Positions 1,065 to 2,636 of a stretch of DNA of 9,452 nucleotides are shown piece after piece. This DNA comes from a virus (Duplodnaviria > Heunggongvirae > Uroviricota > Caudoviricetes). Where the stretch lies: the IMG/VR virus record IMGVR_UViG_2711768048_000004, one strand, 5' to 3'. The notes below the pieces were generated by a model. It was not told the origin of the DNA. It worked only from the letters and a program-made list of their open reading frames with translations, and searched no databases. The translations under genes were made by a program, and so were the position numbers. The number at the start of each line of letters is the position of its first letter. Position 1 is the stretch's first letter.

Positions 1065-1325
1065 TTATAGTTGAATAAGCCACTCGATATCTGGTGCTAC
1101 GGAAGTGTCCACACGGTTTAGCAGCACCCGATACTTTTTTCAGGCTTCCAGCAACGATCTTTCTTCCTCCGTTGCGATTTCCAGATCTACAGCATCCTGC
1201 AGTGGCGCAATATACTCACTGAATTCCTGGATGTAGAACTGTGTGGTGACGGTCTTCCAGCCATTCGGCTCCTGCTGTATTGAAGCATACCAGGCTATTT
1301 CAATATCGCTATGCTGCGGCAGCAT
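1065..1325 (-). pseudogene. tfaX: Tail fibre assembly protein (lambda Tfa-like) C-terminal remnant with an in-frame TGA
   Basis: The 61 aa ORF (1140-1325) ends ...[25 protein letters not shown], matching the lambda Tfa C-terminal region. Past the TGA at 1140-1142 the same frame continues [20 protein letters not shown] to a TAA at 1065-1067; in lambda Tfa the corresponding residue is Trp ([19 protein letters not shown]). Confidence 0.6.
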
Positions 1326-1463
1326 TTAACCCCTTGTAATTCATTGCCATAATTGATTTAATTCACAAATAAAACTATAACATGGTGAAATTAATAAAAA
1401 AACACAGATGATGGGGCTAGAATTTACACACCACTTACCCTAAAGCTTTATGACTGGTGGGTT

Positions 1464-2048
1464 TTGGGAGTATCAAATCGGCTTGCATGGGGATGTCCTA
1501 CAAAGGAACACCTTCTTCCACACTTTCTGGAACATTTAGGTAACAACCATCTGGATATTGGTGTTGGAACTGGGTTTTACCTTACTCACGTACCTGAGAG
1601 TAGTCTGATATCTTTAATGGATTTGAACGAAGCTAGCCTGAACGCGGCATCTACAAGGGCTGGGGAATCAAAAATTAAACATAAAATTAGCCATGATGTT
1701 TTTGAACCTTATCCCGCGGCGTTACATGGTCAATTTGATTCCATTTCCATGTCTTACCTTCTTCACTGCCTGCCTGGAAATATATCTACAAAAAGCTGTG
1801 TAATACGCAATGCGGCGCAGGCCTTAACTGACGATGGAACTCTATACGGAGCCACAATTCTTGGCGATGGAGTTGTGCACAATAGCTTCGGTCAAAAACT
1901 GATGCGCATTTACAATCAGAAAGGCATCTTTTCAAACACAAAAGATTCCGAAGAAGGCTTAACACATATACTCTCAGAGCATTTCGAGAATGTTAAAACC
2001 AAGGTTCAAGGTACTGTAGTAATGTTTTCCGCTTCAGGAAAAAAATAG
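1464..2048 (+). CDS. ybcY: Class I SAM-dependent methyltransferase-like protein (ybcY-like); possibly 5'-degenerate
   Basis: Contains a motif I-like glycine-rich stretch (LDIGVGTG) followed by an acidic residue (LMDLNE) and a hydrophobic block (FDSISMSYLLHCLP). There is no in-frame ATG upstream of motif I, only GTG at 1458 and TTG at 1464 with weak RBS. It is convergent with the tail-fibre remnant downstream. Confidence 0.55.
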   Translation: MGVSNRLAWGCPTKEHLLPHFLEHLGNNHLDIGVGTGFYLTHVPESSLISLMDLNEASLNAASTRAGESKIKHKISHDVFEPYPAALHGQFDSISMSYLLHCLPGNISTKSCVIRNAAQALTDDGTLYGATILGDGVVHNSFGQKLMRIYNQKGIFSNTKDSEEGLTHILSEHFENVKTKVQGTVVMFSASGKK

Positions 2049-2055
2049 CATCCAA

Positions 2056-2088
2056 CCGCAGCATGTTCTTGCTTAAGACGTGCTGCGG
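2056..2088. other. Hairpin between convergent genes (possible bidirectional terminator or RNA stabiliser)
   Basis: Inverted repeat ccgcagcatg (2056-2065) / cgtgctgcgg (2079-2088) with an inner tctt/aaga extension and a 4-nt loop. A U-run follows on the minus strand only after an 8-nt spacer. Confidence 0.3.
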
Positions 2089-2102
2089 CATAATCCCAAT
2101 GA

Positions 2103-2636
2103 TTACTCCCTGACAGGGTTCGTAGGCCACTCAATATCAGGTGCAGTTGATGTATCAACACGGTTCAGCAACCCTTCCGGCTTATTAGCAGAATATGCTG
2201 GTGACGTATGAATCGTCACGCTGGCATTACTGGTATAATCCCATTGAATATTTACACCAGTCGCATAATTTCCGATTGCAACGTAAATATCGTAAGTATC
2301 ACCAGATGTATTGACCCAGGCAAAATTTGTAAACCCTGTCGATGTGCGCTGCCATAAAGCACCAGTAATCCCCTTCGGATTACCATTACCTGCACGCAAA
2401 ACAAGTTCAGATATACCTGCCTGTTGAGGTGACCCCACGTTAAATCCCGCGCCACCAATCAACGTAATTGAAACAACAGAACTCGCCTGTGGCATGGTTA
2501 CCGTTGCTAATTTGAACCAACCAGCACCACCGCTGAATGACATTGTTGTTGAGTTAAGCGTACCAATATCTTTCGGCGTCAGTGTTATATCCGCTGAAAG
2601 CGCCTTACCATTCACCTTACGGGCAGAAGGCATCAT
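2103..2636 (-). CDS. Phage tail fibre / tail-fibre-assembly family remnant (tfaD-like) with a lambda-Tfa-type C-terminus
   Basis: The N-terminal part ([18 protein letters not shown], glycine-rich repeats [15 protein letters not shown]) looks like a tail fibre or adhesin. The C-terminus ([22 protein letters not shown]) matches the lambda Tfa C-terminus. The DNA at 2128-2175 is roughly 75-80 percent identical by eye to 1081-1125. Confidence 0.5.
   Translation of the reverse strand: [177 protein letters not shown]

Follow-up and report, generated by a model that had tools for sequence, protein, structure and literature searches.

Tail-fibre assembly (Tfa) proteins have an N-terminal fibre-binding domain that is variable and changes with the fibre that is bound, and a C-terminal domain that is conserved (PMC9608196). 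It is also known that phage lambda swaps the DNA of its side-tail-fibre (stf) and tfa genes with the defective prophages Rac and Qin through relaxed homologous recombination (PMC3945230). Here, such genes are described in a virus-derived stretch of 9,452 nucleotides (nt) of DNA (IMG/VR record IMGVR_UViG_2711768048_000004; below, the window means this whole stretch), in which a methyltransferase gene lies between two tfa 3′ ends. The systems with which the locus can be compared are the lambda-type stf-tfa module, found in lambda and intact in Escherichia coli UTI89; the invertible tail-fibre segments Mu G, P1 C, e14 P and p15B Min, with their invertases of the Gin, Cin and Pin type; the moron or cargo loci of lambdoid prophages, for instance, lom and bor of lambda and the effector loci beside the tail-fibre genes of O157 prophages; and the prophage DLP12 of E. 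coli K-12. We consider it about 85% probable that the region is explained as a decayed end of DLP12 that carries a repeat-bracketed cassette and has undergone later accidents.

By its sequence, the window comes from DLP12, a defective lambdoid prophage of E. coli, and covers its decayed right end. It is 99.98% identical to DLP12 of strain FDN-24, with only one mismatch and one base in a T-run over 9,452 nt, and its positions 1-2172 are 99.9% identical to K-12 MG1655, which has the same three pseudogenes, including the TGA codon in tfaX and the frameshift in ybcY. In both FDN-24 and K-12, RefSeq labels these as a tail fiber assembly protein with an internal stop and a missing N-terminus (tfaX in K-12), a frameshifted class I SAM-dependent methyltransferase (SAM, S-adenosylmethionine; ybcY in K-12) and a tfa remnant (tfaD in K-12). 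The gene order of DLP12 in the FDN-24 and K-12 annotation is also found, namely appY, the tfa remnants, ybcY and ylcI-ybcW-ybcV-bor-rzpD-rrrD-essD-porin-quuD-ylcG-rusA-ybcO-ninE-ybcN, adjoining ompT-envY-nfrA. The pseudogene trio is thus flanked by appY and ompT on one side and by ylcI-ybcW-ybcV-bor and the lysis genes on the other. A methyltransferase between two tfa 3′ ends, which an original prediction made from the letters of the window had pointed out, is therefore a feature that is already annotated in a model genome (tfaD-ybcY-tfaX in K-12). The names tfaX and ybcY already appear in the literature on the DLP12 region (PMC4469952, PMC6854850). The elements between the two tfa ends are the following:

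1065..1325, minus strand: tfaX pseudogene, or short tfa, with its ATG at 1325-1323, an in-frame TGA at 1142-1140 and the end of the frame at 1067-1065
1076..1123, minus strand: repeat copy 1, the 3′ end of the tfaX pseudogene (from repeat finder, translation and shuffle scan)
1079..1160, minus strand: foreign tfa patch in tfaX, identical at 79/82 positions to the tfa 3′ remnant of locus L020 and at 63/82 to the cassette allele
1382..2048, plus strand: ybcY-type class I SAM-dependent methyltransferase gene, opposite to the tfa genes and inactivated by a frameshift
2049..2102, no strand: spacer between the convergent tfa and methyltransferase ends, with an inverted repeat at about 2056-2065 and 2079-2088 (stem read by eye)
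2123..2170, minus strand: repeat copy 2, the final codons of a formerly full-length tfa (from repeat finder and alignment)

The longest direct repeat that a repeat finder returned for the window is the pair 1076-1123 and 2123-2170, which is 48 nt long and 77% identical at a spacing of 1047 nt. In an ungapped scan, the pair matches at 37/48 positions, whereas the best 48-nt direct matches in 30 dinucleotide-preserving shuffles of the whole window reached 29-32 (mean 30.0, standard deviation 0.7). The prediction of direct, diverged repeats of roughly 75-80 percent identity is consequently upheld, and so is the claim that both copies encode LLNRVDTS(T/V)APDIEW on the minus strand, since translation gives these residues and the products match the Tfa profile Caudo_TAP (PF02413). 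In the read-through tfaX product, the match covers residues 31-82 (E 4.7e-23); in the 177-residue product of an open reading frame (ORF) that includes the second copy, it covers residues 156-174 (E 2.3e-6). In effect, the C-terminal segment of the family (...APLQDA.DL.IAT.EE...LL....) is present in both copies, which cover only positions 75-126 and 112-130 of the 131 in the profile; the variable N-terminal fibre-binding domain and the full length of ~175-195 residues are found in neither, both being fragments. Full-length Tfa neighbours have PF28596, the N-terminal domain, in addition to PF02413. Window 2124-2172 is 100% identical to the 3′ ends of the K-12 tfaD remnant and the full tfa of UTI89, and the repeat ends at 2170 because a deletion junction lies there; between tfaX and intact tfa, homology extends over 157 nt at 84-85% identity (window 1076-1232). 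It had been reasoned that the prediction would fail if the identity were at background level or if one full-length gene of related genomes accounted for the segments. The identity is above background, but the upstream copy is indeed the end of one full-length tfa in UTI89.

In UTI89, the intact relative, a stf gene (1036 residues) is followed by tfa (195 residues), a methyltransferase gene on the opposite strand (222 residues) and a short tfa. Window 1079-2172 matches the tfa 3′ end, the methyltransferase and the short tfa of this array. The same block occurs in thousands of E. coli genomes at 95-99% identity and in diverse contexts. For instance, it is found in viable lambdoid phages (ev243, 2G7b, PhiR26_1, PhiR29, PhiR30, Kati and Turner), in P2-like prophages, either after an H-type fibre gene and its tfa or straight after gpD, and in prophages that have an invertible stf/tfa segment and a resolvase remnant. 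All these contexts have a tfa 3′ segment on the left of the methyltransferase, including those that lack a full tfa. The left-hand remnants break off at many different places in the last ~60 codons. Some are joined to a holin-like gene from another fibre module and others to a resolvase gene or an internal tfa deletion, and the one in the window is joined to stf. The flanks of the cassette in UTI89 are 227-nt direct repeats with 88.5% identity; ~70 nt of them lie beyond the stop codon and hold a conserved inverted repeat, and the inverted repeat of the window's spacer recurs after short tfa in alignments of other genomes. On these comparisons, the methyltransferase and the short tfa are an accessory cassette of ~1.05 kb between direct tfa 3′ repeats.

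Sites without the cassette were sought with a two-part query that combined the unique 5′ portion of a tfa with the DinI flank found after short tfa. In 53 genomes, tfa is followed directly by the DinI flank, with the two parts ~219 nt apart as against ~1,270 nt at the occupied site, so the empty sites are short by ~1,050 nt, that is, one repeat unit. The one empty site that was aligned has tfa, the hairpin and then the same flank. The spread and loss of the cassette by way of the tfa 3′ repeats would be the most economical reading of these patterns. Some points weigh against it. The occupied and empty sites come from lineages that are only ~91-93% identical, and the indel could have another origin. 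The recombination of the cassette is deduced from sequence comparison. The repeats in the window are only 77% identical, and recombination between them would be inefficient here. In addition, the listed homologues that cover the N-terminal codons of the short tfa are all short proteins, so that the right-hand repeat need not have started as a truncated full-length tfa.

A rival possibility is that the flanking repeats do not stem from two tfa ancestries and were instead duplicated in place when the methyltransferase inserted into a single tfa. An insert bracketed by direct repeats is the classic signature of insertion, and the UTI89 repeats, reaching ~70 nt beyond the stop codon, also suit such an origin. 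Nevertheless, it seems unlikely, as the flanking repeats are 77-88% identical to each other while the intervening DNA is conserved at 96-99% among genomes, the short tfa has 30 N-terminal codons that lack a counterpart in full-length tfa, and a duplication of 157-227 nt far exceeds any target duplication made by a transposase.

The reading that we prefer, a cassette exchanged through its tfa 3′ repeats, implies a history that starts from an ancestor with the order stf, full tfa, reverse-oriented methyltransferase, short tfa and cargo (appY, ompT), in which the cassette would have been bracketed by two direct copies of the conserved tfa 3′ end and a short following stretch. As the tfa 3′ DNA encodes the conserved C-terminal domain of Tfa, it is alike among unrelated tail-fibre modules, and on either side of the cassette this similarity gives homologous recombination a place to act. 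The repeats would thereby link the cassette to varied tail-fibre modules and to downstream cargo, and it would be gained or lost as one repeat unit. Three later accidents in this lineage account for what is seen in the window. A crossover near 1160 gave the short tfa the 3′ end of a different tfa lineage, after which came a nonsense codon and a joint with the appY island; the methyltransferase was broken by a 2-nt deletion; and an illegitimate deletion of 1268 bp fused an internal part of stf in frame to the last 23 codons of tfa, giving the 177-codon ORF. We infer the order of these events and the role of repeat-mediated homologous recombination in moving the cassette from what is observed, namely identities, joints, a mosaic boundary and the presence or absence of the cassette.

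Like the known moron or cargo loci of lambdoid prophages, the window has an accessory gene against the late operon, directly after tfa, with more cargo behind it. This cargo consists of appY and ompT in the window, catalase-type and ferritin-like genes in O157 and a hydrolase gene and ompT in ev243. In contrast to those loci, the cargo unit of the window is bracketed by direct tfa 3′ repeats and is found in several unrelated prophage types; no description of such a unit was found in the literature searched. Two related observations concern the cargo itself. In the viable phages ev243 (L006 7310-10423) and 2G7b (L008), an alpha/beta hydrolase gene and ompT come after the short tfa and immediately precede int, and ompT is thus phage-borne cargo there; in both, stf-tfa is replaced by another fibre module, with a fibre of the C-terminal chaperone type, and a non-coding tfa 3′ remnant is left. 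In O157:H7 (L004 6453-8666), a block with genes for a general-stress protein, two ferritin-like proteins and a manganese catalase lies between the full tfa and the methyltransferase, so this slot takes further cargo.

The presence of two tfa ends also recalls the invertible segments, which likewise have two nearby coding copies for tail-fibre assembly, from the same gene families. It could be proposed that the window holds what is left of an invertible segment like Mu G, P1 C or e14 P whose invertase has been lost, and in some prophages (L015-L018) the cassette does adjoin an invertible stf/tfa segment and a remnant of the resolvase family, with true pix sites. However, the copies in those segments are inverted, with 26-bp crossover sites inside the fibre gene and an adjacent invertase, whereas the tfa copies of the window are direct repeats on the same strand. 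No gix- or pix-like 26-mer was found in the window at up to 3 mismatches, and there is no serine invertase gene among its ORFs or annotated in the FDN-24 region. Moreover, in loci that do bear an invertase, such as L016, the pix sites lie in stf at ...VIEYLGL... and not in tfa. The suggested comparison with stf-tfa-pin segments therefore yields no remnant of a crossover site, and an origin from an invertible segment is extremely improbable.

A mosaic boundary is visible in tfaX. This pseudogene has only the conserved Caudo_TAP part of Tfa, placed after 30 unique N-terminal codons that are unrelated to full-length Tfa; in its complete form, the short tfa is an ORF of 89 residues that ends in ...DIEWPANPVRE or ...PAVPVME. 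Of 819 short-tfa homologues in a large protein collection, the 120 best were listed; all of these that cover the N-terminus are short (77-142 residues), and no full-length Tfa with this N-terminus was found among the 120. When cassettes are compared in bins, DLP12 (window and K-12) is essentially identical to the others from 1160 to 2172, while between 1080 and 1160 it differs from them at 8-17 positions per 40 nt. Aligned site by site, positions 1161-1208 are identical to the cassette allele at 48/48 sites. The closest relative of the patch beyond this boundary is L020, an unrelated, sit-linked prophage, and one of the three differences from it is the change of TGG to TGA at 1140-1142. The tfa homology ends at 1078/1079, where the AT-rich appY island starts. 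The switch of alleles near 1160 is, on this alignment, a recombination joint inside the conserved tfa 3′ segment. Together with the many independent left-hand tfa truncations within ~60 codons and the site difference of one repeat unit, it marks this segment as a place where recombination joints accumulate. In this respect, the original prediction, which saw the conserved tfa 3′ segment as a place of recombination, is well supported by the tfaX switch, the clustered truncations and the cassette indel.

It is possible, if somewhat doubtful, that the short tfa of intact cassettes is a working gene of 89 residues, that is, a Tfa C-terminal domain alone that is inherited together with the methyltransferase, and that only the DLP12 copy is a pseudogene. 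Intact 89-residue ORFs with an ATG are common, with a Shine-Dalgarno-like AAGGGG read by eye 4-5 nt upstream of it, and a diverged allele (87% amino-acid identity) has kept an open frame with a ratio of nonsynonymous to synonymous change (dN/dS) of ~0.2 over codons 1-76. The start codons of the short tfa and the methyltransferase, which are divergent, are also a constant 56 nt apart (1326-1381 in the window) in lambdoid, P2-like and Rac-like contexts. By contrast, the short tfa has been inactivated repeatedly and independently, by nonsense mutation in DLP12, frameshift in 2G7b and truncation at insertion-sequence elements or island joints in O157, ev243 and K-12. It also lacks the fibre-binding N-terminal domain, and the low dN/dS in codons 31-76 may come from functional full-length tfa through gene conversion, as at the tfaX switch. 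Between the divergent starts, there is one promoter-like match (1326-1353, plus strand); in a scan of 950-2250, promoters and terminators were no more frequent than in shuffles, and no terminator with a T-tract was found.

The product of the methyltransferase gene has a Rossmann-type methyltransferase domain, with Methyltransf_12, _23, _25 and _11 all above their Pfam cut-offs. No specific NCBIfam family could be assigned, the best match (E 0.0015) being far below its cut-off, and NCBIfam likewise gives no specific family for the short tfa and the 177-residue ORF. Compared with the intact gene of 222 residues, which occurs in UTI89 and phage ev243, the ybcY frame is broken by a 2-nt deletion in an A-run near 1396-1403.

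The second tfa end has a different history from that of tfaX. It belongs to a 177-codon ORF whose parts and surroundings are as follows:

2103..2636, minus strand: chimeric ORF, a pseudogene, in which 2 codons of a gene C scrap precede an internal stf fragment, with the final 23 codons of tfa at the end
2170..2172, no strand: stf/tfa deletion joint, with only AAC shared and 1268 bp missing relative to UTI89
2170..2630, minus strand: internal fragment of a lambdoid side-tail-fibre gene, corresponding to residues ~630-785 of the 1036 in UTI89 Stf and 99.8% identical to L002 7362-7822
2630..2632, no strand: joint at the upstream end of the stf fragment, at an stf position where many other prophages are also broken
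2631..2814, minus strand: head-region fragment, made up of the 3′ end of the portal gene and the 5′ part of gene C (S49 protease), joined at ~2813/2814 to the ylcI region

The original prediction had described this ORF as a chimera of a tail-fibre body and a Tfa tail, and such it proves to be. The scrap of the head operon, 184 nt long, supplies its first two codons through the joint at 2630/2631, and RefSeq annotation divides the ORF into two fragments. When UTI89 is taken as the reference, the 1268 bp that are gone comprise the final ~250 codons of stf and codons 1-172 of tfa, and the tfa frame was restored by chance. Relative to the lambda-type module, the stf fragment shares 99.8% identity with the corresponding part of UTI89 stf, the tfa end shows no difference from that of UTI89 and the C-terminus of lambda Tfa is closely similar, but the window lacks the C-terminal ~250 residues of Stf and residues 1-172 of Tfa, and neither gene is complete. 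Of a full-length stf with an N-terminal attachment domain and a C-terminal receptor-binding region, only the internal part is found in the window.

A further claim of the prediction was that recombination at the conserved tfa 3′ segment, of the kind that swaps tail-fibre modules, had left the chimera as its footprint. The stf/tfa joint does lie at the edge of that segment, in which other joints cluster. In spite of this, homologous exchange is a highly improbable source of the ORF, given that the partner is an internal stf position without similarity to tfa beyond AAC and that, next to the intact UTI89 array, the 3′ end of stf and most of tfa are simply absent. At its other end, the stf fragment meets gene C in a second deletion joint. 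In addition, joint-spanning queries find the exact chimera only in FDN-24 and FDN-9, two near-identical genomes among 5,426 complete E. coli genomes; 190 genomes cover at least 80% of window 1-3600, a count of coverage that does not measure the frequency of the chimera. As far as can be read from the joint, the chimera is the result of an illegitimate 1268-bp deletion with 3 nt of microhomology and not of module exchange.

DLP12 of K-12 is the same locus, with the same order tfaD-ybcY-tfaX adjoining appY, but its tfa remnant is 438 nt long and is fused with a terminase fragment and nohD, whereas that of the window is 70 nt long and is fused with the internal stf fragment and the gene C scrap, and nohD is missing. 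The two arrangements are separate decay products of one fuller ancestor. In the window, tfaX, the methyltransferase and the chimeric ORF are probably all non-functional, because of the stop codon and foreign tail of tfaX, the loss of 2 nt from the methyltransferase gene and the make-up of the ORF from fused fragments. As annotated pseudogene debris in a very well-known cryptic prophage, the finding is of little weight in itself. The region is, nevertheless, a worked example of two processes that look alike by eye, namely illegitimate deletion, as in the chimera, and homologous exchange in the Tfa C-terminal segment, as in the tfaX switch and, probably, in the movement of the cassette between tail-fibre modules.

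The only part of the region that might merit further work is the upstream joint of the stf fragment, where the coding strand reads ...AATGGTCGGG TA CCTTCTGCC... In other defective prophages, the same stf sequence is found up to ...GCAGAAGG(TA) and is then joined to different partners, with at least 24 distinct junction types at this stf position in the data fetched. The partners include terminase A (FORC_081 and many others), Nu1 (TOK-001), the capsid gene E (VE-T2) and gene C, as well as the tape-measure gene, J, lysozyme, Rz, upstream stf positions, a second terminase type and others. The loci are:

L022 5461, L023 4461, L025 5080, L026-L045 and L059-L166: loci with the same breakpoint

In IMG/VR, 117 copies are intact at the breakpoint, 14 contigs diverge at the third base after GAAGG and ~9 more keep TAC and diverge later. 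At a control site 77 nt away, 103 are intact and 1 is altered, and none is altered at two further control sites. The mirror search, in which the upstream side is kept, returned 1 contig, which is the reciprocal counterpart of another junction in its own metagenome. Thus counted, the endpoint of the stf breakpoint is not random. Two loci from the same metagenome, L075 (4168) and L171 (73), have reciprocal in-frame junctions between stf and another tail-fibre-like gene at the same TA, and in L166 (1298, 1922) the stf fragment is inverted and joined to a second site in that gene; from their arrangement, these junctions look like conservative exchange rather than deletion. At the 19 partner sites for which the intact sequence is known, the aligned dinucleotide is TA in 14, CA in 3 and TG in 2, and the contiguous microhomology is 0-8 nt.

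These data suggest, tentatively, and with the odds still against it, that 2630-2632 is a sequence-specific breakpoint made by a directed process instead of random decay, at which many lambdoid prophages would have independently lost everything upstream of one dinucleotide. One candidate mechanism is a double-strand break at a fixed place, either the GGTACC palindrome or a cosN-like 12-mer, followed by microhomology joining; another candidate is a conservative recombinase with a 2-bp TA core. The breakpoint site does hold GGTACC and a 12-mer that agrees with lambda cosN at 9/12 positions in the packaging orientation, but the match is weak evidence because such 9/12 12-mers are frequent (5-16 per ~12 kb, both strands). 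If true, prophages would be disarmed in a way not yet described that spares the distal tail-fibre and tfa genes, and this could bear on prophage inactivation and on the frequent survival of those genes in defective prophages. The literature searched for cos-like cleavage or a deletion hot spot in tail fibres held nothing relevant, and a scan of genome contigs for the breakpoint pattern found nothing.

Other candidates at the breakpoint were tried and rejected. Quasi-sites of the Gin/Pin type match the consensus at 0-7 of 22 positions, which is the random level. A CC[CG][GT] motif beside the partner sites held for the first 6 sites and then for only ~11/19. Protection of the retained end by Chi was discarded, there being no Chi on either strand of the window, and so was an unusual single-strand structure (z-scores of 0.17 and 0.45).

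Some minor features of the window can be added. A 45-codon ORF at 1993-2130 on the minus strand, lying over the 3′ end of the methyltransferase and the tfa end, is called a nucleocapsid protein in RefSeq; this call is almost certainly spurious. The porin gene at 6325-7482, a relative of nmpC annotated as porin in FDN-24, is an intact ORF of 385 codons; the K-12 copy is interrupted by IS5. The T-run at window 7-13 has 7 T as against 8 T in FDN-24 and K-12, which leads the appY frame to an early stop (...SLIKKD*); the difference may be a homopolymer sequencing error or a true frameshift in appY. Finally, positions 520-1078, between appY and tfaX, are a very AT-rich spacer free of ORFs, and this spacer has been reported as an appY-associated promoter island with divergent transcription (PMC4469952).

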